A stretch of DNA of 64,000 bases, taken from IMG/VR virus record IMGVR_UViG_3300018080_000123, positions 32,001-96,000 of that record, one strand, 5' to 3'. The position numbers and the translations under genes are program-made. Below the pieces are notes generated by a model. The model saw only the letters and a program-made list of their open reading frames with translations. It did no database searches and was not told the DNA's origin. This DNA is from a virus. This document shows positions 31,908-63,520 of this stretch, piece by piece (the stretch's first letter is position 1; the number at the start of each line of letters is the position of its first letter).

Positions 31908-32223
31908 ATCCGAGGCGGCGATCTCTTTCTTTCCTTTTCCAGTTAACTCTCCTCACCTCTCCATATACTCTAAACGTGCTAGGTCCATACCAATTAGGAT
32001 GCTTCAGTTTGACAAAAAGAACAACCTCCGCTCGAGGCCTAATCTTAATCTGATCCTCTTCTTTCACAATGATAAAGCAACCGCCAACGTTAAAATCATA
32101 TACCGACCCCTTAGCAACTATCGTTCTAGTTTCCATATCCATCATTGCTGCATTACTGCCAAGGAAGGTGAGAAGTCTGGGTTTCTTTCTTTTCTCTTCT
32201 TTATTTTCCATCCTCTGTTCCAC
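31861..32223 (-). CDS. Stand-alone PilZ-domain protein
   Basis: EKRKKPR (RxxxR), YDFNVGGCFI (variant of D/NxSxxG), GEVRRV and LGYAISF strands. Confidence 0.75.
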   Translation of the reverse strand: MEQRMENKEEKRKKPRLLTFLGSNAAMMDMETRTIVAKGSVYDFNVGGCFIIVKEEDQIKIRPRAEVVLFVKLKHPNWYGPSTFRVYGEVRRVNWKRKERDRRLGYAISFTGGFTKVDCE

Positions 32224-53301: not shown

Positions 53302-53530
53302 TTTCCTCTTCCTCTCCGCTCAAATCGGTATGTTTTCTAAAACCATAGAGGGCCCCGATTGATCCTACAACCGTTGCAAAATCGGTTCCAGAAAACTCGC
53401 CAAGAGAAATTCCCTGAATTGTCATTCCCGATAGTAAAAGTTTGATAATTGACACAAAAAAAGCAATAACAAGTAAAGTAAGAGTGACGGACGATTTACT
53501 CGTTTTGGGGTCTCGGATCCACACTTTCAT
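53294..53530 (-). CDS. Small two-TM holin-like protein
   Basis: DPKT.K.SVTLT, two TMs, charged tail. Confidence 0.5.
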   Translation of the reverse strand: MKVWIRDPKTSKSSVTLTLLVIAFFVSIIKLLLSGMTIQGISLGEFSGTDFATVVGSIGALYGFRKHTDLSGEEEESV

Positions 53531-54128
53531 AGTCTCCCTCCTGATCCCATTCGTTGACAAAATAATCCATTATCGTTTTAGCCATCGGATATTTCTCAAG
53601 CAATGGGCCATAATATTTGTCATTTAATTGACTAATAGTATTCTTATATACCTTGTTAAATTTAGTATTTCCACTACGGCGTTCTTCTGTTAAATAAATT
53701 AGCCGCTCAAGTAAATCTGCAAGATCAATAATTTCTCCCTCTATTCCATCTTTGCAGTTGAGAGTGGCTCGGCGAATATTCTTTTTAGCTTCTCTAGGTA
53801 AATGTAAGAGAGCCTCATCAAATAATTTTGTCTCAATTTGTTTAGTTTTGGCTCGCATTTCATCATCAAAATTTTTTGTAGGAGCAGGGATATCCCCCAG
53901 CATAGATTCGGGGACATCGTGCCATGCAGCTTTAGAATAGATCGCTAACATATCTAATTTTTCTTCATTCTCTCCTCTTCGCGCATTTTCGCACTCGGCA
54001 ATAATAGCAGCCAAACAAATGACAACATGACTATGAGCCGCAACAGACTGAGAACAATTGACTCTATGAGTTGAGTACCTTTTGATATACTGAAGATTAA
54101 GCAAAATATTAAGTAGTTGATTCTTCAT
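53496..54128 (-). CDS. HD-domain 5'-deoxynucleotidase (YfbR/DatZ-like)
   Basis: KRY, SVAAHS, HDVPE...GDIP.P.K, ADLLE. Confidence 0.85.
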   Translation of the reverse strand: MKNQLLNILLNLQYIKRYSTHRVNCSQSVAAHSHVVICLAAIIAECENARRGENEEKLDMLAIYSKAAWHDVPESMLGDIPAPTKNFDDEMRAKTKQIETKLFDEALLHLPREAKKNIRRATLNCKDGIEGEIIDLADLLERLIYLTEERRSGNTKFNKVYKNTISQLNDKYYGPLLEKYPMAKTIMDYFVNEWDQEGDYESVDPRPQNE

Positions 54129-54837
54129 CGCCCTTTTTTAAAACCTTTCTTTGAATCTTTTTAAATACTTTTGCCGAATCCTTTTCCAACTGTTCTAATT
54201 CTCCATACACACTATCAACAACCGCATCGGCCTTATCCCGAAGAACTAGATATCCCTGCTCCGACGGATGGTTATCTTTTCCCTTTTCCTCGGCAACCTC
54301 ATTTTTGACATATACCAAATAGAATTCATCTCCAAATGTTTTCTTACAGTGTTCATATTCATTTTCAAATCTCATATCAGTAACAAGATATACCCCCTGA
54401 GGTTGAACATTTTTGAATGCCATCTCGATATGCCACGTAGGACAAATATGCCTAATAATTTCAGTAGCAACAAATTTAATCACATCTCTATAGGTATTTT
54501 TTCCTCCAACAAAAACGTGCCTATCCCACGAACTCACTGAAATTGAGTATGGATTAATCACATTTTTATTTTTCAAGCGATTGTAAAGGTCTGCTACTTT
54601 ATGAATAATCTGTCTTACGGTTTTAGTGCTTAAAGGAACATTTTTGCTTAAAAAACTATCTTTCTCGTCTCCGTCTATTTGTTCTGCGGTAAACTTAAAA
54701 ATCTCTTTCATAATTTCATCTTTAAAGCACCTTGCAAAACAAATTGTTCCAGATGCTCCAAATCGCTCGAGAGCAATCTGTCCTACTGTGTCTTTTCCTG
54801 CTCTTTTCGCCCCTATAAGTCCAATAATTAGTCTCAT
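54109..54837 (-). CDS. Deoxynucleoside monophosphate kinase (T4 gp1-like)
   Basis: GAKRAGKDT, TDMRFENE, HPSE. Confidence 0.85.
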   Translation of the reverse strand: MRLIIGLIGAKRAGKDTVGQIALERFGASGTICFARCFKDEIMKEIFKFTAEQIDGDEKDSFLSKNVPLSTKTVRQIIHKVADLYNRLKNKNVINPYSISVSSWDRHVFVGGKNTYRDVIKFVATEIIRHICPTWHIEMAFKNVQPQGVYLVTDMRFENEYEHCKKTFGDEFYLVYVKNEVAEEKGKDNHPSEQGYLVLRDKADAVVDSVYGELEQLEKDSAKVFKKIQRKVLKKGDEESTT

Positions 54838-54854
54838 ATTGTCTCCTACCTCCA

Positions 54855-57800
54855 TTATACAACAATACACTTAATTGAATTGAGAGCTAGTCCAAATTTG
54901 CTAGTTGATCCTACTATTTCAACCATTATACCGGGAACTAACTTATCTTTCACCGCCGGTAGAATATCGCTCCAAACGTAAACTGTTATGACATTATCTC
55001 CGTTTTTGACCTTCACTCGATAAAAATCTTTATCGGTTTTTGTCTTTGCTTTCTGAACAAGGTCGATTAAACCTCCTATGCGAACAGTCTGGTTATCAAT
55101 AGGAGGAATTTTAGTATAATCCCCAATTGTTCCCTTTGTAAAAAGAGTATCAAATCTTCTTACCCAATCGGTCCTATAAATTGAAAGAGCATTTTTCTTA
55201 AGTTCTTCAAAAGCGAAGGTATTATCAATATTGTCAAACTTCTTTGGAACGTCTTCTTTTCTCAAAAAATAGAAATGCATGATGAGATCTCTAATGCTTT
55301 TCTCTGGCTCTATATTTCTAAATGTATTCGATAAAATTAAATTTTCAATCACATTCTTCTTTACGGTTCTTTTTTCTATTCGAGTCCAAAAATCCTTGAA
55401 ACTATTAAAAGGTCTTTTAGAAATAATCTCTTCAATTGCTTCATCGGCAACTTGGGTAACATAAGCGAGGGGCATAACCAGTTTCTCATTTTCGTTAAGT
55501 CTGAACTCTTTTTCGCTTTCGTTGATTTCTGGTTCAATTAGAATATCGCGTAAAAAACTGTTCTTATCGTCTTCAACAAACCCCTTAAAGTCATCCGTCG
55601 AGCAATTCTGGAATACGGATGCCCACCACTCTAACGGATAATAGGTTTTTAGATATTGACATATATATCCTATATACGAATAACAAACAGAATGAGATCT
55701 ATTGAAGCAATAGCTCGCGTAGTTTTCCATTTCTTTAAGCAAAGTATGAGCTCCATCCTCGCTCATTGGAGGATTAAGCTGTGTCGTTGCGTAATTAATG
55801 AATTGATCTTTTGCCTCTTGTTTTAGTCCCCCAGGCTTTGAAATAGCTTTTCTAATATGATTCGATTCTACGGCGGTAAAACCCCCTAAAGACTGAAAAA
55901 TTCTCATGATTTGCTCTTGATAGACCATCAGCCCATATGTATCTTTCAAAATTGGCTCTAAAGCAGGATGAACATAAGTTATTGCCTTTTCTCCTAATTT
56001 TCGATCAACATACTTCTCGTCCATTTTTCCAAGCCTGTATGGTCCCGGTCGACCTATTGCTGTAATAATTGCTAGGTCATTAAACGTATCTGCTTTTGAT
56101 CTTTCTAAAAGAGGAGTCGACAAAGCCGTATTAAACTGAAATACTGACTCAGTATCTCCTTTTCTAAACTTGTCTAGAACCTTTTTATCGGTCGGCTCTA
56201 AACTATAAATATCTAGATCTATATTTCTTCTCAATTTGAGTAATCTAAGACACCCTTGAATATCTCTCAGAGTATTCAGAGATAGAATATCAAACTTGAC
56301 TAATCCCGCTTTTTCTAGATATCTTCCATCATATCCAGTCATTGGGGTTGCATCAAGTGCGTTTGGCTTATTTATTACAACCGGAATATAGTCTGTTGGA
56401 TTTCCAGGAACAATTACAATCGCGCAAGGATGAACTTTATTAGTCTTGATTTTGCCTGCCATCTTTAACGCTGCTTTGAACACATCTTGATTGGCAACAA
56501 AAAATCCCTGAAGCTCTTCATTCCCCTCGCTAAACAAAAACTCTTCAAACCATTCACGCTCATTAACTCCAGGGCCAGAGGACGGAATGTCTTTAGTAAT
56601 TGTATTTATGTATGCATAGTCATAAGCTTCTTTTCGAAGAACCCTGTAAGCATCTTTAATAGCTGTTTTTGTTTTGATGCCCTGCAGAATCCCAACTCTA
56701 ATTACTTTATCATGTCCATATTTTTGTCTCAAATAACCAAACACTGATTCCTGATCAGAAAAGTCTAGATCAATATCGGGATAATCAGTTCTACTAATAT
56801 CAAGAAACCTTTCAAACGGCATATCATATTTGATAGGATCTAGTTTAGTAATATCTAATGCATAAGAAAGCAAAGATCCTCCAACAGATCCACGACCTGG
56901 CCCAACAAGGATATCATTAGCCCTACACCATCGAACAATATCTTCAATAATAAGGAAGTAGTCAGCAAAACCTTTCTCTTTTATTACCGTCAGCTCGAAG
57001 TTCAATCTTTGAATATATTCATCTCGGATAGGAATTTTCTTATTCTTTTTAACAATAGTAAGTAAGAGGTCCTCAGAGGTCATTTTTTCTTTTGATAAAG
57101 GATGGTCTTCAATAGGAAATCTAACAACCTCAGGCCTTCTTCCTAACTCATATATCTCTACCTTATCTGCTATTTCATTGGAATTCTGAACCGATTGGTT
57201 GAATTCTTCTTTAGTAAAAATCTTATCGTGCCCGTGCTTCTTGAACTCTTCCCAAGATTCTTCAGCGGTCATCAAATAATGATTATCAGTAGCAAAATGC
57301 CATCCATCTTTTCCTGCAAACGAATTAAGAATAAAGATATCTTGAATCTGCTTATCTTGTTTACTCGGATAATGAACATCCAAAGTATGAATTAGTTTCA
57401 CATTGTGTTTGCGGGCCCATTCAATCATCTGTCTATTGTGATCGATTTGAGAATTCTTTTCAGTCTTTTCAAAATTTTTATACTCCCTATTCCACTGCGT
57501 ACTAAGATCAAGCGGCTGAATCTCAGCATAAAAATCATCGCCAAGCTCTTTTTTAAACTCAATGAAGAGCTCTTCGCTTGTGACAGAAGATGCAATGCAT
57601 GCAGTAGTAACGATTAGGCCTTCTTTATGATCAAACAGATCTTGAATACTAATCAAAGGCCGGTAGTTGAACGTCTTAAATCCTAACGAAGCAAGCTTCA
57701 ATAAATTAAGATACCCGGCATGGTTCTTAGCAAGAGCAACAATATGTCGTCTTTCAATTTTTTTCTTTGTCTTTTTTTCAGGAAGAAAAAACTTTTCGCA

Positions 57801-58007
57801 CGTATAAAACTCAACGCCTAAAACAAGCTTAATATCTTCTGTTTTGCAAGCTTCATGAAAATGGAAAAGGCCACAGGCAGTACCGTGATCGGTAATACCT
57901 ATGGCCTTCATCCCGAGTTTCTTAGCTCTTTTTACGTACTCTTCAGGTGTCCCAACTCCGTCGAGGAAAGAATACATAGTGTGAAGGTGTAGCTCAACTC
58001 TTTCCAT
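54855..58007 (-). CDS. dnaE: DNA polymerase III alpha subunit
   Basis: PHP HLHT..S.LDG, GRGS, PDIDLD, KFDIL, YQEQ, FNRSH; no intein seen. Confidence 0.96.
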   Translation of the reverse strand: MERVELHLHTMYSFLDGVGTPEEYVKRAKKLGMKAIGITDHGTACGLFHFHEACKTEDIKLVLGVEFYTCEKFFLPEKKTKKKIERRHIVALAKNHAGYLNLLKLASLGFKTFNYRPLISIQDLFDHKEGLIVTTACIASSVTSEELFIEFKKELGDDFYAEIQPLDLSTQWNREYKNFEKTEKNSQIDHNRQMIEWARKHNVKLIHTLDVHYPSKQDKQIQDIFILNSFAGKDGWHFATDNHYLMTAEESWEEFKKHGHDKIFTKEEFNQSVQNSNEIADKVEIYELGRRPEVVRFPIEDHPLSKEKMTSEDLLLTIVKKNKKIPIRDEYIQRLNFELTVIKEKGFADYFLIIEDIVRWCRANDILVGPGRGSVGGSLLSYALDITKLDPIKYDMPFERFLDISRTDYPDIDLDFSDQESVFGYLRQKYGHDKVIRVGILQGIKTKTAIKDAYRVLRKEAYDYAYINTITKDIPSSGPGVNEREWFEEFLFSEGNEELQGFFVANQDVFKAALKMAGKIKTNKVHPCAIVIVPGNPTDYIPVVINKPNALDATPMTGYDGRYLEKAGLVKFDILSLNTLRDIQGCLRLLKLRRNIDLDIYSLEPTDKKVLDKFRKGDTESVFQFNTALSTPLLERSKADTFNDLAIITAIGRPGPYRLGKMDEKYVDRKLGEKAITYVHPALEPILKDTYGLMVYQEQIMRIFQSLGGFTAVESNHIRKAISKPGGLKQEAKDQFINYATTQLNPPMSEDGAHTLLKEMENYASYCFNRSHSVCYSYIGYICQYLKTYYPLEWWASVFQNCSTDDFKGFVEDDKNSFLRDILIEPEINESEKEFRLNENEKLVMPLAYVTQVADEAIEEIISKRPFNSFKDFWTRIEKRTVKKNVIENLILSNTFRNIEPEKSIRDLIMHFYFLRKEDVPKKFDNIDNTFAFEELKKNALSIYRTDWVRRFDTLFTKGTIGDYTKIPPIDNQTVRIGGLIDLVQKAKTKTDKDFYRVKVKNGDNVITVYVWSDILPAVKDKLVPGIMVEIVGSTSKFGLALNSIKCIVV

Positions 58008-58018
58008 TAAAGCTAACC

Positions 58019-58297
58019 TTATTTGTTCAACAATCCAAGTTTCCTCGCCTGGTAGTTGACGATAGTAACGGTGGATTTGTTGAAACCCTGTCCGATGATA
58101 TCTGCAGCAGCTTCACCGGCCAAAAGGCGACGGAGAATGTCAGCTCGCTTTTTCGTAAAACGAACTTTGGTAACATTCCCATTCTTTCGCTCCAACTCGA
58201 AAGTCTTACCAAACCACTCCTCGGCACTCGCCGTGGCGTCGGTATTGGGAGTTTCGACAGTTGCAGCATTCTCAGTCATGTCTAAGGTAGTAGTCAT
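58019..58297 (-). CDS. Small putative DNA-binding early protein
   Basis: Own sigma70 promoter, AGGAGG RBS, HTH-like C-terminus. Confidence 0.5.
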   Translation of the reverse strand: MTTTLDMTENAATVETPNTDATASAEEWFGKTFELERKNGNVTKVRFTKKRADILRRLLAGEAAADIIGQGFNKSTVTIVNYQARKLGLLNK

Positions 58298-58359
58298 AAT
58301 TTGACCTCCTCTAGGTGTTTATGTTAGAACCACTTGTATTATACATCCTATCTAATTAT

Positions 58360-58388
58360 ATTATAACATATTTTGCAAAAAAGTGCAA
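58360..58388 (-). promoter_or_regulatory. Sigma70-type promoter TTGCAC-N17-TATAAT
   Basis: Same architecture as 18629 and 34093 (T-tract after -35, TATAATATAA). Confidence 0.7.
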
Positions 58389-58409
58389 GAACTTTGTTTC
58401 TCAATAATT

Positions 58410-58958
58410 TCAACGAGTTAGCCCTAAGATAAACTCATACCAAGATCTTTTGGCTAGCTGTCCTAAGGTGTGATAGAGCTGAGAAACTCCTTTCTGATAG
58501 TTGATTTTGCACTCGCGTCGATACATAATTTCCCCACAATCTACGTCTTTTGTAGCTTTATGGATTACAACCCCAGTCGATGGAAGCTCTAAACGATATG
58601 CCTTCTCTTGAGGATCTTTTCCTTTAAGCTCGGGGAATTTTACTATGTCTCCAGGATGAAGATTATAGATTTTGTACTCGGCACAAATTTCTTCAGGAAT
58701 AACCCTCATATATCCCATAAGAAAAATATAGTCGATAGGCATAAACTCTTCAATTCGAACTAAGACTTCTTTATAGTCCTCAAGAGTTGGATTTTTTGGA
58801 AGAACATAGATTAGATTTGAATTCCAACCGCCTTTCAACAGAGGAGATTTTGCGTTATTTGTAACAAAAACAACTGCGCTAATCCCCAATTCCCATTGGC
58901 GATCGGCTATGTGTTGAGCATCCGAACCTGTGCGCGAGCTAAAAATAACAACATTCAT
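58410..58958 (-). CDS. PurN-like formyltransferase (candidate DpdN, preQ1 formyltransferase)
   Basis: FSSRTGS, GYMRVI, NLHP, GVVIH...VDCG; lies in the 7-deazaguanine cluster. Confidence 0.8.
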   Translation of the reverse strand: MNVVIFSSRTGSDAQHIADRQWELGISAVVFVTNNAKSPLLKGGWNSNLIYVLPKNPTLEDYKEVLVRIEEFMPIDYIFLMGYMRVIPEEICAEYKIYNLHPGDIVKFPELKGKDPQEKAYRLELPSTGVVIHKATKDVDCGEIMYRRECKINYQKGVSQLYHTLGQLAKRSWYEFILGLTR

Positions 58959-58959
58959 C

Positions 58960-59496
58960 TCAATCCTCTTTTGATGAAGCAAGCCTCATTAATGAAACCT
59001 TACTTAAAATAAAATCAATTCTCTCATCAATTGTTCCAGCCACTACAAAATGTGGAACATCATATTCATAAAGTAACTTTCGAATTTCATCATCCACCCT
59101 TTGTTGATACAGCGGGTTCCCCGATCTCTCGGAATCTCCCTCTAATTCAAACGTAATTGGAAAATAGAAGAAAATTGAATCGTCTTTGATTTTGTGATAA
59201 AAGTCAATCATTTTTTTTTCGTTGCTAAAGTCCCGAATATTTACCTTTGCATAAGCAATACAGTCAAAAACATTGCGCGTAAAATATACCAGCTTATCGT
59301 AGTCAATAAAATGTTTTTGAATATGAATAGTTAAGTCGTCAATTAAGCTTTGATATTCGGGTTTTCCAATAGGTAGATTTGCTCTAATAACAGGCCGGCT
59401 AATCCCATCTAAGTATAAATCTCCGGTTCGGTTTGAGATTTCTCTCAACACCGTGGTTTTTCCTGTTCCATGACTTCCTACTGCAAAAATAAACAT
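58960..59496 (-). CDS. P-loop nucleotide kinase-like (AAA_28/NadR-type)
   Basis: GSHGTGKTT, R..FD..AY, D.ER, GTIDER. Confidence 0.75.
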   Translation of the reverse strand: MFIFAVGSHGTGKTTVLREISNRTGDLYLDGISRPVIRANLPIGKPEYQSLIDDLTIHIQKHFIDYDKLVYFTRNVFDCIAYAKVNIRDFSNEKKMIDFYHKIKDDSIFFYFPITFELEGDSERSGNPLYQQRVDDEIRKLLYEYDVPHFVVAGTIDERIDFILSKVSLMRLASSKED

Positions 59497-59990
59497 TATC
59501 GGTTGTCTACCTTTTTACAATTGATATTTCTCTGTATTAGTCGATGCTGTCTAAAATTTTCCCACTCGGGACTCCCATTGCAAGAGCTCGAGAAAGGATC
59601 AATGCTAATTCCGCCCCGAGGGAGAAACTCTCCCACCACTTCGATATATCTAGGGTTCATCAGCTTCTTCAAATCTTTCATAATGATATTTACGCAATCC
59701 TCATGAAAATCTCCCTGATTGCGAAACGAAAACAAATACAGCTTTAATGACTTTGATTCGACCATCAATTCATCCGGGACATAGCTGATATAAATCGTAG
59801 CAAAATCCGGCTGCCCAGTTTTTGGACAAAGAGACGTAAACTCGGGACAATTAAAAGTTACCATATACTCGGTATCTAAATGCTTATTCCGAAACGTCTC
59901 TAGAACTTCAGGATTATACTTATCAGAATATTTTACATTCTGATTCCCTAGTAAGTTCACACCCTCCAATTCTTTGTCATTCCTCGACAT
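59496..59990 (-). CDS. queF: NADPH-dependent preQ0 reductase, unimodular
   Basis: [15 protein letters not shown], QueF motif [18 protein letters not shown]. Confidence 0.93.
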
Positions 59991-60834
59991 TTCTTTTCTC
60001 CTGTGCAACGAGGTACTTAAATACCTCTATATTATACAAGATGCATTGCATTTGCCTAATCGTAAGCTTAACGTCAAGGTTATTGGCTAAAAGATCTTTT
60101 TTCTTCTTTCCCCTCAATCCAAAAAGATAGCTAATTTTCATGTCAAAATATCCATGAATGATAGGACAGCTTGTATCCACAGATACAATAAAGTCGTATC
60201 TATTTCCATCCCTATATTTGATAAACTCGATAGGATCGCTACATCCAAGAAGATGATGGTGTTTCTCTCTGTTAATAAGCCCTTTTTCAATAAGTCGATT
60301 GATTAGTTTATGCCGCGCTTCAACAAAGCGAAGAACTTCTTTGCCATATTTTGGAATAAGTTCATCATCATAAAACAAAACATCATATGGAATAGCAATA
60401 ACGCTAACACCGGGATTATTAACTAATGTAGAATAACAATCAAAGTATTCTTGTTCGGTTTTTCCCTGAGCAACTGCGATGATTTTATACTCTAATCTCT
60501 CTTCCTTCATTCGAGCAATAAAATTTTCAACGCTTGCAACTGTAGCAGGTCCATTATGTAAAACATCTGGAGGAACGATATGAGTAGGATTAATCATTCT
60601 TGCGTACTTTAAAAGAAAATCAGCAGTAACAGACTCTCCCAACTCAAAAACACTATTATCAAGGAAAATTATTCGTCCTTTTTTTGCTCTGTCAATATAA
60701 AACTGCAAATACTCCGGATCCCGCTCGCACATATGAACTAAGCAATAATCAAAATCATTGAATGTCAAAGAAGGTCCAAAGAGCATTTTCGGGCACTCAT
60801 GAGAAACTAGCAACCTGTCATTTGTCTTTTTCAC
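59977..60834 (-). CDS. TGT/DpdA-like TIM-barrel (candidate DpdA3-type)
   Basis: LDNS.FE, PPDV, AVAQG, HLLG and SVDTS follow the TGT-fold motif order; lies between folE2 and queF. Confidence 0.6.
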
Positions 60835-61654
60835 GAAAATTCCTTTCTAATGTTGCAATAGCATTACACTGATGAATGCTCTCATCGTGGTCGGCTGTTA
60901 CTTGGTAGTAGTCGATCTTATCCCCCATCTCATCTAAAACAACAGCAATCTTACGAACCATATCCTCGACAAATCCAGGATTATCATAGGCCCTCTCTGT
61001 GACATATTTTTCGTCAGGCCTTTTGAGAGTATTCCAAATTGGACAGCTTCCAGCTTGTTCAATTATCTGAGCAAGATCTTCAATCCAAATAAAATTTTTC
61101 ATATCTTTAAAGCGAATCTTAATGGTTCCGGTCGACCTTTGATTATGAGCCCCGTGCCCCGCTCCGTTTCCATTAGAACTCATTTCTTTGCTACAAGGAC
61201 AAAGAGACGTGTACATAACACTGACGCTCAAAAAAAGATCCTTTTCTCCGTTTTCTAATACGCCTTCGAAATGACAATCGTAGTAAAAATGAGACTCTTC
61301 TCCGCTAACTGGAGCTTTCTTTTTAACAAAATATGGAAAATCAATTCGAATCTTTGAATCAGTCTGCTGAAGCTGATCTCGACATGCGTCAACCATATCA
61401 TTAACAAGATCGCTATCAAGCAACTTCTTCTCAAGCGCTCTTTCAATGACTTGAGAAAACCGACTCATATTGACCCCGCGACTTTCTGTACTAAGATCAA
61501 CAGCAAGAGAAACAGTTCCCACAGTCGTCGTAACTCCCTCCCCTTTTGTTTTTACGCTAAACGGAATTTTATAATTACGAATTCCCACCCAGTTAATCTT
61601 TTTGTCATATTTGTCTTTTGAATTTTGAATATCTGGTAAATTTTGACTATTCAT
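60818..61654 (-). CDS. folE2: GTP cyclohydrolase IB
   Basis: LPDIQ, RGVNMSRF, TSLCPCSK, AHNQRS, KRPDE, FVED, ESIH. Confidence 0.95.
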   Translation of the reverse strand: MNSQNLPDIQNSKDKYDKKINWVGIRNYKIPFSVKTKGEGVTTTVGTVSLAVDLSTESRGVNMSRFSQVIERALEKKLLDSDLVNDMVDACRDQLQQTDSKIRIDFPYFVKKKAPVSGEESHFYYDCHFEGVLENGEKDLFLSVSVMYTSLCPCSKEMSSNGNGAGHGAHNQRSTGTIKIRFKDMKNFIWIEDLAQIIEQAGSCPIWNTLKRPDEKYVTERAYDNPGFVEDMVRKIAVVLDEMGDKIDYYQVTADHDESIHQCNAIATLERNFREKDK

Positions 61655-62075
61655 CTTTTTCCCTCGGGATTAAAATAGTTTCGGTTGGGAAAACAATCCA
61701 GTCGCTCGTCTCTCGAACGAAAAGATACTTGCTTGTTTTAGCGCAATCATCTTGTTTATATAGTGCAGCAAAAAAACAGAAATTTATACAATTAATTTTT
61801 TTTTCAATTGTCCGAAAAGTCTCTCCGGTACAGAAGACATCATCTACTATCAAAGCATTACTTAGCTTAGAAGGCCAACAACTCTTATCAACCATTGATA
61901 GCCCAACAACATTCTCTATTTCAAAAAGCTTTGATAAATATCCAGCGATAGGAAGTCCGCCGCGCGAAACTCCAACAATCTTATCAAACTCAAGATCTTT
62001 GACTTTCCACGCTAACTGAACGCATAAACTGTCAAACTCTCCCCAATCTAATCTATATTCTCTTCTACTCCTCAT
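61647..62075 (-). CDS. Gpt-like purine phosphoribosyltransferase
   Basis: GVSRGGL, LIVDDVFCTGET, WIVFP. Confidence 0.8.
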   Translation of the reverse strand: MRSRREYRLDWGEFDSLCVQLAWKVKDLEFDKIVGVSRGGLPIAGYLSKLFEIENVVGLSMVDKSCWPSKLSNALIVDDVFCTGETFRTIEKKINCINFCFFAALYKQDDCAKTSKYLFVRETSDWIVFPTETILIPREKDE

Positions 62076-62784
62076 TTTTACACTCCCAGTAAAACTTTTG
62101 AGCCGCCATCCATTCATCAAGCGTTAACAGAGGGTCTTGAACTCTATTGTCAATAAAAACTTCAGTTCGCTCCGTACACGTTCCACATTTCAAACAAGGT
62201 CTGTTTTCGCCCCTATAACACGACCACGTTGTCGAATAGTCAACCCCAAGATCAAGCCCAACCTCGCCCACTTGACTTTTTGTCATATTCTGAAACGGCC
62301 TAAGAAACTCTACTCCTCTAAAGGTTCCAGCCTTGGCGGCTTGTTCAAAAGCAATATTGAAATCTGGACGACAATCTGGATAAATAGCATGATCTCCGGC
62401 GTGAGATCCAAGAGCGACATAATCGGCTTCCACGCTGTCAGCAATTCCAACAAGATTTGACAACATAATCCCATTCCTGAACGGAATGACGGTCTGTTTC
62501 ATGCTTTCTTGATCATACAATCCTTCAGGAATCTCTCCCCCGCTCTTTAAAAGATCTGACTTAAACAAACCATTGATATAGCTAATATCGATGGTCTGAT
62601 GAGGGATATTTAGTTTATCGCAATGCCATTTTGCAAGTGGTAACTCCTTCTCATTATGCTTTGAATTCATGAAGAATGAATAAGCCTTAAGATCATACTC
62701 TTGATCATGAAGATAATAAAGCAAAGTTACGGAATCCATTCCTCCTGAAATGCTAATGATAGCACTTTTCTTCTTGTTTGACAT
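62065..62784 (-). CDS. queC: 7-cyano-7-deazaguanine synthase
   Basis: SGGMDS, PFRN, YPDCR, TWSCY...C.KC..C. Confidence 0.95.
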   Translation of the reverse strand: MSNKKKSAIISISGGMDSVTLLYYLHDQEYDLKAYSFFMNSKHNEKELPLAKWHCDKLNIPHQTIDISYINGLFKSDLLKSGGEIPEGLYDQESMKQTVIPFRNGIMLSNLVGIADSVEADYVALGSHAGDHAIYPDCRPDFNIAFEQAAKAGTFRGVEFLRPFQNMTKSQVGEVGLDLGVDYSTTWSCYRGENRPCLKCGTCTERTEVFIDNRVQDPLLTLDEWMAAQKFYWECKNEE

Positions 62785-62785
62785 T

Positions 62786-63520
62786 CTATACTCCTTTTTT
62801 TGATCCGTAGAGCCAAATATGGGCTCTCGTAGCGAAATTCCACCCAGCTCTTTTGCAAAGCTCAATAACCCAACTGGCTCTCTCCTTGAGCTGTTCATCG
62901 GTAATTCCTTGAGGCATCAGCCATATCTTGTCATCAGGAATACCGAAATCTCCCTGAAAGTCAACAATTTCTGATAAATCAGAAAAGTTATGCATGACAA
63001 ATTTTACCTGGTAGTCGACCCCATCGGCTAAAAAACTATTAATTACTTGATCAATCAATCTCCTTGCTTTCCAACAAGCCGAATTGCTTGACTCTAATTT
63101 TGGTGAAAGTGAAATAAATTGAGCCTTAGAAGGCCAATAAATTGTTCCATTAGTCTCAACCGTTATATAGTGCCCGTCTTCAACTAAAACATTAATTAAG
63201 TCAGCAACAGACTTTTGCACGTATGGTTCGCCGCCCGTAACTACAACATGTTTACATTTGAACCTTTTAACTTTTTCAACAATCTCTTCTATTGTAACAA
63301 GATTTTTTTCTGGATTCCAACTACTGTGAGGAGTGTCGCACACAGTAAATGATCCGTCACTATTTTTCCACTTACATCTAAGATTACAGCCGCTTGTACG
63401 AATAAATACAGAAGGGACACCGGTATATTTTCCTTCGCCTTGAATTGAATAGAAAATTCCCCCATCCCCCTCTTTGGTCAAATTAATTTTTTTGTCAAGG
63501 CGACTATCTCTATTTTTCAT
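62786..63520 (-). CDS. queE: 7-carboxy-7-deazaguanine synthase
   Basis: FYSIQGEG, GCNLRC...CDT, TGGEP, ETNGT, SPK. Confidence 0.93.
   Translation of the reverse strand: MKNRDSRLDKKINLTKEGDGGIFYSIQGEGKYTGVPSVFIRTSGCNLRCKWKNSDGSFTVCDTPHSSWNPEKNLVTIEEIVEKVKRFKCKHVVVTGGEPYVQKSVADLINVLVEDGHYITVETNGTIYWPSKAQFISLSPKLESSNSACWKARRLIDQVINSFLADGVDYQVKFVMHNFSDLSEIVDFQGDFGIPDDKIWLMPQGITDEQLKERASWVIELCKRAGWNFATRAHIWLYGSKKGV

Follow-up and report, generated by a model that had tools for sequence, protein, structure and literature searches.

A diverged DpdA3-type 7-deazaguanine cassette in a phage replication module and the nucleotide kinase that accompanies DpdA3

To our knowledge, complete replacement of a canonical DNA base is rare, and each known case (hydroxymethylcytosine, hmC; hydroxymethyluracil, hmU; deoxyuridine, dU; and Z) proceeds via the deoxynucleoside triphosphate (dNTP) pool. 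For the 7-deazaguanines the literature states the opposite: the transglycosylase DpdA3 is held to exchange bases after replication. All three tested DpdA3 phages replace 100% of their G and, in Flavobacterium phage immuto, all G in the DNA is replaced by formyl-preQ1 (PMC10516641). Here, we describe a DpdA3-type cassette in a 64,000-nucleotide stretch of viral DNA (the window; positions 32,001 to 96,000 of IMG/VR record IMGVR_UViG_3300018080_000123), which is part of a complete phage genome of 113,606 bp with direct terminal repeats. The cassette itself is of a known kind, diverged, and its mechanism is testable. Its most telling feature is a small kinase, one of several kinds of nucleotide kinase that accompany DpdA3 in different lineages.

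An initial annotation of this region correctly typed a Gpt-like phosphoribosyltransferase (PRTase) and a P-loop kinase within the que cluster, followed by DnaE, a deoxynucleoside monophosphate (dNMP) kinase and an HD nucleotidase, and proposed that modified dG nucleotides are made and phosphorylated before replication. It omitted the DpdA3 gene at 59977-60786, held in the literature to be the inserting enzyme. The general proposal gains indirect support from DpdA3 and its adjacent kinase, and the specific steps suggested for the other enzymes are unsupported.

DpdA3 and its kinase

The DpdA3 open reading frame (ORF) of the window is 38.7% identical by tblastn to a protein of Flavobacterium phage immuto_2-6A annotated as DpdA and 39% identical to CP220 gp056, with phiST CGPG_00065 a more distant relative. 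A search at E<=1e-3 returned 2304 cluster representatives, which makes this a large family. An AlphaFold (AF2) model built from 124 relatives reached a predicted local distance difference test (pLDDT) score of 94.6, and its best Foldseek matches were all tRNA-guanine transglycosylases (TGTs), headed by the Z. mobilis enzyme (probability 1.0, E ~1e-7). The modelled fold is a bare TGT-like barrel of ~260 aa, against 350-380 aa in TGT, and it lacks the zinc subdomain. Six residues are invariant in the family (D43, E48, D74, H178, G181 and D204); D43, D74, H178-L-L-G181 and D204 align with the catalytic motifs of TGT and DpdA, and both catalytic Asp positions are kept. Net charge and isoelectric point (pI) failed to discriminate DpdA3 from other DpdA subfamilies. 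In the metagenomic protein P0111 (447 aa), DpdA3 is naturally fused to a formyltransferase, and P0155 carries a 320-aa N-terminal extension ahead of DpdA3; a search for longer fused DpdA3 forms returned none above 516 aa.

The genes around DpdA3 place the cassette among the replacement clusters of this type. DpdA3, the base-synthesis genes (FolE2, QueD, QueE, QueC and QueF) and a DpdN-like formyltransferase are all present, and the formyltransferase shares a BLAST cluster with immuto gp204 that recurs in 33 of 85 DpdA3 loci. Because immuto carries the same parts list, including a PRTase, an AAA_28 kinase and a formyltransferase, the cassette is, as judged from its genes, a divergent version of the DpdA3/DpdN (formyl-preQ1) system already published, and fdPreQ1 is its predicted end product.

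A census of DpdA3 neighbours covered 80 IMG/VR loci around its relatives (the closest of 550 confirmed) and five isolate phages, with all ORFs clustered. The commonest neighbour in these 85 loci was the P-loop kinase of AAA_28 type (K28), present in 71, followed by QueF (62), the formyltransferase (33), QueE (32), FolE (31), QueC (23), QueD (19) and the PRTase (16). In 40 loci K28 followed DpdA3 immediately, and in 23 the formyltransferase stood between the two. Counted over 87 viral DpdA3 loci, the kinase occurs in 72, as against 0 of 26 loci with two other DpdA subfamilies (Fisher 2e-15, a value that overstates independence, as the IMG/VR loci are related). Several of the loci without K28 end just downstream of DpdA3, and two others have a different P-loop gene adjoining it. 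The two proteins are even found as a natural fusion (P0169; metagenomic, 473 aa). The predicted complex of DpdA3 with K28 scored 0.00, which gives no verdict and counts neither for nor against the pairing.

K28 looks like a small-molecule nucleoside or nucleoside monophosphate (NMP) kinase. Its profile matched, among PDB entries, the deoxynucleoside kinase 8puu, the ribosylnicotinamide kinase (RNK) domain of NadR, thymidylate kinases and deoxyguanosine kinase. The model (pLDDT 81.8) has deoxyadenosine kinases, NadR and thymidylate kinases as its closest folds, with Foldseek probabilities of 1.0 for deoxyadenosine kinase and thymidylate kinase (TMPK). Eleven positions are invariant (G7, G12, K13, T15, R34, Q49, R74, D78, Y82, D121 and R124), and the family shows a P-loop and a DR motif, with a LID Arg and a lid of sequence DDGxRS. 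Searches with tblastn recovered Bacteroides and Streptomyces phages and missed immuto, and profiles were required. In Bacteroides phage DAC16, a K28-family kinase (L169:4986-5540) is 32% identical to that of the window, and there is no DpdA3 or que gene within 5 kb of it.

Other lineages fill the place of K28 with kinases of other families. In phiST and Chryseobacterium phage MA9V-3, a small AAA_18 kinase lies directly upstream of DpdA3, and CP220 has an additional HD+AAA_33 fusion at its DpdA3 locus. On Saccharibacteria-associated contigs, the gene immediately after DpdA3 is a genuine member of the thymidylate-kinase family, matching solved TMPKs at 2e-12. A DpdA3-like gene is accompanied by a Tmk-like gene in actinomycete genomes and, in Amycolatopsis saalfeldensis, also by a guanylate-kinase-like gene, a HIT protein and a Gat-QueC fusion. 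A nucleotide kinase is thus missing from DpdA3 loci only in rare cases; the position is taken by four unrelated kinase families in different lineages, and other DpdA subfamilies occur without a kinase. That unrelated (d)NMP kinases were recruited again and again is an argument for a nucleotide phosphorylation step as a need of the pathway. The published DpdA3 scheme has no phosphorylation step, and the kinase is nowhere mentioned (PMC10516641).

The Amycolatopsis genes form a chromosomal operon on a 287-kb contig of A. saalfeldensis DSM 44993 (L193:5819-12209), which runs Gat-QueC, guanylate-kinase-like, DpdA3-like, a 374-aa unknown protein, HIT, Tmk-like, QueE and QueD. Related loci occur in Lentzea pudingi, a Saccharothrix sp. 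and a Pseudonocardiales metagenome-assembled genome, in which the 374-aa unknown is fused to the Tmk-like kinase. The Amycolatopsis operon may be prophage-borne, or it may encode a deazapurine nucleotide or natural-product pathway.

The remaining, uncategorised neighbours of DpdA3 included no recurrent dGTPase in the census; MazG, dUTPase and IMPDH/GMP-reductase appeared once each. Two small proteins recur in T4-like DpdA3 loci, both lacking a Pfam match. One, of 205 aa (L082:10435-11052 and 10 related loci), follows QueC and starts with Met-Cys; this N-terminal Cys suggests an N-terminal nucleophile (Ntn)-type amidotransferase, possibly half of a split Gat-QueC. The other, of 145 aa (L040:9537-9974 and 10 related loci), lies directly upstream of DpdA3 and shows, by eye, a PD-(D/E)XK-like D...DVK pattern.

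The phosphoribosyltransferase and the replication genes

The PRTase inside the que cluster is a 6-oxopurine enzyme by its profile, which matched the P. horikoshii purine PRTase 1vdm (6e-29), S. solfataricus GpT-2 and XGPRT in the PDB. It has a pyrophosphate (PPi) loop, GVSRGGL (GVxRGGL), a phosphoribosyl pyrophosphate (PRPP) motif, VDDVFCTGET (VDDVxxTG), and a C-terminal motif, WIVFPTE in the window copy and WIVFPWE in its Gpt form. In the route that grew out of the initial annotation, it would ribosylate preQ0 or preQ1 with PRPP, as do ToyH and TubE in toyocamycin and tubercidin synthesis, after which kinases and a reductase would yield the dNTP, the HD enzyme would remove dGTP/dGMP and DnaE would incorporate the analogue. 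The position of the gene in the que operon suits this route, and PRTases that accept 7-deazaguanines exist in Streptomyces pathways. The window protein and its closest relative, P0015, moreover have Cys where guanine PRTases have the catalytic Asp that faces purine N7 (Gpt Asp92, HGPRT Asp137). However, 83 of the 97 viral members retain this Asp, the window Cys being an exception, and the substitution was rejected as a family trait of 7-deaza specificity. A marine subgroup of 131-aa PRTases has Glu at this position.

The gene neighbourhoods of the PRTase also speak against a dedicated part in full replacement. Divergence limited a tblastn search with the PRTase to a single match. Among 80 viral PRTase loci, FolE occurs in 34, QueE in 34, QueD in 27 and QueC in 17, with DpdA3 in 5 and K28 in 3; conversely, the PRTase is found in only 16-23 of the 87 DpdA3 loci. 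In many cases it adjoins FolE, and on one viral contig a small PRTase is naturally fused to GTP cyclohydrolase I (FolE; L142:6107-7054). Other DpdA subfamilies occur at many of its loci; ADSGGLQ is the motif of one (428 aa) and LDSGAF that of another (286 aa), and hhalign finds each to be a homologue of DpdA3 (95-96%), such that the PRTase accompanies FolE, QueD and QueE beside three different DpdA subfamilies. Because of this linkage across subfamilies, the PRTase is, on its associations, an accessory of base synthesis in general and not of full replacement. Each base exchange, whether on DNA or on a nucleotide, frees one guanine, and the likelier role of the PRTase is guanine salvage, in which the released guanine would be recycled to GMP and then to GTP for FolE (FolE2 in the window). 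It may act on preQ0 in the manner of ToyH or TubE; no result here favours this.

The genes that follow the cassette fare similarly. The HD protein was supposed to act like DatZ of the Z-genome phages in removing the canonical nucleotide. Its PDB matches are YfbR (2paq, 4.5e-8), Lin2634 and OxsA (5tk6), with H..HD..D aligned to YfbR and no DatZ chain among them (E<=0.01); its NCBIfam score is 67 bits, under the cut-off of 122. Neither the HD protein nor the dNMP kinase has a homologue (phmmer E<0.01) in any of ~165 deazaguanine loci. Both are probably general nucleotide-salvage genes of the phage and not a dedicated arm for dGTP removal. DnaE, cast as the polymerase that incorporates the analogue, has homologues in only 3 other DpdA3 loci. 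DpdA3 clusters adjoin polymerases of family A (immuto, BSP7), B (T4-like contigs) or C (the window phage), and therefore no special polymerase is implied. Of the enzymes for which co-occurrence had been proposed as a check, only the kinase regularly accompanies DpdA3.

The complete genome encodes no class I/II or class III ribonucleotide reductase (RNR), no ThyX and no MazG (no PF03819 match). Any ribonucleotide that the PRTase made would therefore have to be reduced entirely by the host, and no reductase is needed where the starting point is a deoxynucleotide.

Nearly all genes of the phage lie on the minus strand, as do all those of the cassette, which are close-packed (Table 1). In the direction of transcription, GroEL, DnaB and primase precede two small unknown ORFs, QueD and a family-4 uracil-DNA glycosylase (UDG). 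QueE, QueC, the small PRTase, FolE2, the 269-aa DpdA3 ORF (which has no Pfam match), QueF, the P-loop kinase and the formyltransferase come next, followed by a 92-aa unknown ORF, DnaE, the gp1-type dNMP kinase, the HD protein and gp32-like, RecA-like and Mre11-like genes. ORFs were called mechanically and typed with Pfam, PHROG and NCBIfam profiles.

Table 1. Genes of the cassette and of the adjoining replication module, in order of transcription; coordinates refer to the window unless a contig is named.
Feature	Coordinates (strand)	Basis of assignment
QueD	L002:1063-1479, just beyond window edge	
Family-4 UDG-like, 186 aa	63510..64000 (-), leaves window; full gene at L002:510-1070	Pfam UDG 1.7e-36
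QueE, radical SAM 7-carboxy-7-deazaguanine synthase	62786..63520 (-)	phrog_2076 1.2e-51; Radical_SAM 7.4e-12
QueC, preQ0 synthase	62065..62898 (-) as listed; real start probably later	PF06508 5.3e-50
Small Gpt-like 6-oxopurine PRTase, 142 aa	61647..62075 (-)	Pfam marginal, 26.6 bits; phrog_8995 6.5e-13
FolE2, GTP cyclohydrolase IB	60818..61654 (-)	PF02649 2.2e-80
DpdA3-type transglycosylase, 269 aa, between FolE2 and QueF	59977..60786 (-); ORF 59977-60834	tblastn, TGT fold
QueF, preQ0 to preQ1 reductase	59496..60008 (-)	TIGR03139 1.4e-50, 170 bits vs cut-off 86.9
K28, putative small nucleoside/nucleotide kinase (P-loop)	58960..59496 (-)	AAA_28 2.6e-9
DpdN-like formyltransferase (predicted preQ1 N-formylation)	58410..58982 (-)	Formyl_trans_N 2.6e-14
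Unknown ORF, 92 aa	58019..58297 (-)	
DnaE-type family C replicative polymerase, 1050 aa	54855..58007 (-)	PHP, DNA_pol3_alpha, finger and HHH_6 domains
T4-gp1-type dNMP kinase	54109..54870 (-)	PF21448 1.1e-8, 35.4 bits vs cut-off 27.1, full length; P-loop GAKRAGKD
YfbR-like HD 5'-deoxynucleotidase	53496..54128 (-)	PF12917 1.1e-30

The UDG-like gene between QueD and QueE scored 195.5 bits against TIGR00758 (UDG_fam4; cut-off 125.3) and is not conserved near DpdA3, occurring in 2 of 85 loci. Elsewhere a UDG domain is fused to polymerases (phrog_17; contigs L142 and L118, and PolA of BSP7). The 92-aa ORF has no Pfam, PHROG or NCBIfam match and no homologue in the other loci. A megablast search of the region against phage records gave no match. 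Across the genome, palindromes show observed/expected medians of 0.92-0.97 and no clear pattern of restriction avoidance; GTAC and CATG are mildly depleted (~0.7), and other 4-mer and 6-mer palindromes are near expectation.

Where guanine may be exchanged

We favour a reading in which the cassette, of DpdA3 type and embedded in a replication module, works at the level of the nucleotide: DpdA3 would exchange the base of a free deoxyguanosine nucleotide or nucleoside, and the product, once phosphorylated by the kinase, would be built into DNA by the polymerase. We put the probability of this reading at roughly 45%. By homology, FolE2, QueD, QueE, QueC and QueF would convert GTP to the free base preQ1, from which the DpdN-like formyltransferase would make the formyl derivative. 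DpdA3 would then swap guanine for the modified base, most likely on a free deoxyguanosine nucleotide or nucleoside and not on finished DNA. After phosphorylation by the adjacent small kinase, host nucleoside-diphosphate kinase (NDK), possibly with the gp1-like dNMP kinase of the phage, would complete the dNTP for DnaE. We infer these substrates and this order of steps from the gene identities, the folds of DpdA3 and the kinase, and the linkage statistics.

A little more tentative is the claim at the core of this scheme, that DpdA3 is not a DNA transglycosylase but the first TGT-fold enzyme to act on free nucleotides or nucleosides, which with its kinase would build a 7-deaza-dGTP pool, with replacement pre-replicative and the PRTase closing the guanine loop. 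Support for such a route is genuine, if indirect, and comes via DpdA3 and the kinase, not via the PRTase. The 100% replacement in tested phages, the failure of DpdA3 in an E. coli DNA assay and the detection of ADG (7-amido-7-deazaguanine) nucleoside in CP220-infected cells all fit exchange on nucleotides (PMC10516641). A literature search for a PRTase-based or pre-replicative 7-deazaguanine route found nothing.

Several points weigh against exchange at the nucleotide level. All characterised TGT and DpdA relatives act on a polynucleotide, and we know of no TGT-fold enzyme that acts on a mononucleotide. The linkage statistics come from related contigs, with independence overstated. K28 homologues occur in Bacteroides phages without DpdA3, and therefore the kinase family extends beyond deazaguanine clusters. 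The genome shows no obvious enzyme for clearing dGTP, as it has no MazG and an HD protein of dNMP-nucleotidase type, and the Cys of the window PRTase is a poorer fit to guanine salvage than the catalytic Asp would be. Finally, the study that defined DpdA3 came to the conclusion that the base is inserted after replication (PMC10516641).

In that published model, DpdA3 acts on duplex DNA that is already replicated and there exchanges guanine for the 7-deazaguanine base. The kinase would then assist, whether as an ATP-using partner with a role like that of bacterial DpdB or by adding to the supply of guanine nucleotides, and the PRTase would remove or recycle the excised guanine. Bacterial DpdA requires the ATPase DpdB, which offers a parallel for the kinase, and the K28-DpdA3 fusion suits a helper as well as it suits channelling. 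DpdA3 is a homologue of TGT and DpdA with both catalytic Asp positions; other DpdA subfamilies are established to insert the base at the level of DNA, and a 2023 NAR paper proposed this for DpdA3 and also reports the failure of DpdA3 in the E. coli DNA assay (PMC10516641). That failure sits awkwardly with exchange on DNA, as does the missing zinc subdomain. Likewise, K28 has the fold and motifs of small-molecule nucleoside/NMP kinases and not of a DNA-acting ATPase, is absent beside other DpdA subfamilies, and is replaced in other lineages by genuine thymidylate-kinase and guanylate-kinase family genes. Exchange on finished DNA, although somewhat less likely than exchange on nucleotides, is a strong rival, and the kinase may yet be a helper.

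Modification might instead be partial and motif-specific, with the nucleotide enzymes as unrelated housekeeping genes that share an early operon. In phages with DpdA1 or DpdA2 the modified share of G is only 0.1-30%, and the window phage is known from metagenomic sequence; the three tested DpdA3 phages are nonetheless fully substituted (PMC10516641). Kinase linkage is also far too regular for chance, and we consider this reading unlikely. Least probable is ribosylation of the free base by the PRTase, set against which are an enzyme that follows FolE and QueDE with any DpdA subfamily, a genome without RNR, a YfbR-like HD protein that, like the dNMP kinase, recurs in no other locus, and a DpdA3 gene left without a role.

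Exchange at the nucleotide level, if true, would offer a previously undescribed enzymatic way to 7-deaza-dGTP analogues and account for the failure of DpdA3 in E. coli. It would also make 100% guanine replacement pre-replicative, contrary to the published conclusion. Little is to be learned about this system from the PRTase, HD protein, dNMP kinase and DnaE, and the set of enzymes in the initial annotation is narrowed accordingly. What is new here is this negative result for HD, dNMP kinase and DnaE, the link of PRTase to FolE, including a fusion, across DpdA subfamilies, and the replacement of K28 by thymidylate- and guanylate-kinase family genes.

Comparison with known systems

The closest described system is that of immuto, which shares QueD, QueE, QueC, QueF, FolE, DpdA3 (38.7% identity), the formyltransferase, the AAA_28 kinase and the small PRTase. 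The window phage differs in having FolE2 in place of FolE, in the order DpdA3-QueF-kinase-Fmt and in a DnaE, not PolA, neighbour. It also lacks a MazG-like gene and carries a family-4 UDG inside the operon. CP220 (100% 2'-deoxy-7-amido-7-deazaguanosine, dADG) and phiST (100% 2'-deoxy-7-deazaguanosine, dDG) likewise pair DpdA3 with an adjoining P-loop kinase, CP220 gp057 (AAA_28) and phiST CGPG_00066 (AAA_18), respectively. However, their pathways end at bases derived from 7-carboxy-7-deazaguanine (CDG), without QueF or DpdN, and the HD+kinase fusion of CP220 and the MazG beside DpdA3 in phiST are both lacking in the window phage.

The Z-genome of cyanophage S-2L (PurZ, MazZ, DatZ and DpoZ) offers a conceptual likeness, in that a base is fully replaced via the dNTP pool and the canonical nucleotide is removed. 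No homologue of any of its parts occurs in the window phage, whose HD protein is YfbR-like and which has no MazG. Moreover, the base of the window phage is made free and must reach the sugar by exchange. The viral PRTases share with E. coli Gpt and the archaeal 6-oxopurine PRTases (1vdm, GpT-2) the PPi loop, the PRPP motif and the C-terminal aromatic WxxFPWE motif; they are only 131-142 aa long, and the window copy has Cys at Gpt Asp92. Finally, DpdA3 has the TIM-barrel fold and both catalytic Asp motifs of TGT, DpdA1 and DpdA2. Unlike these, it is ~100 aa shorter, lacks the zinc subdomain and, alone among them, is coupled to a nucleotide kinase.

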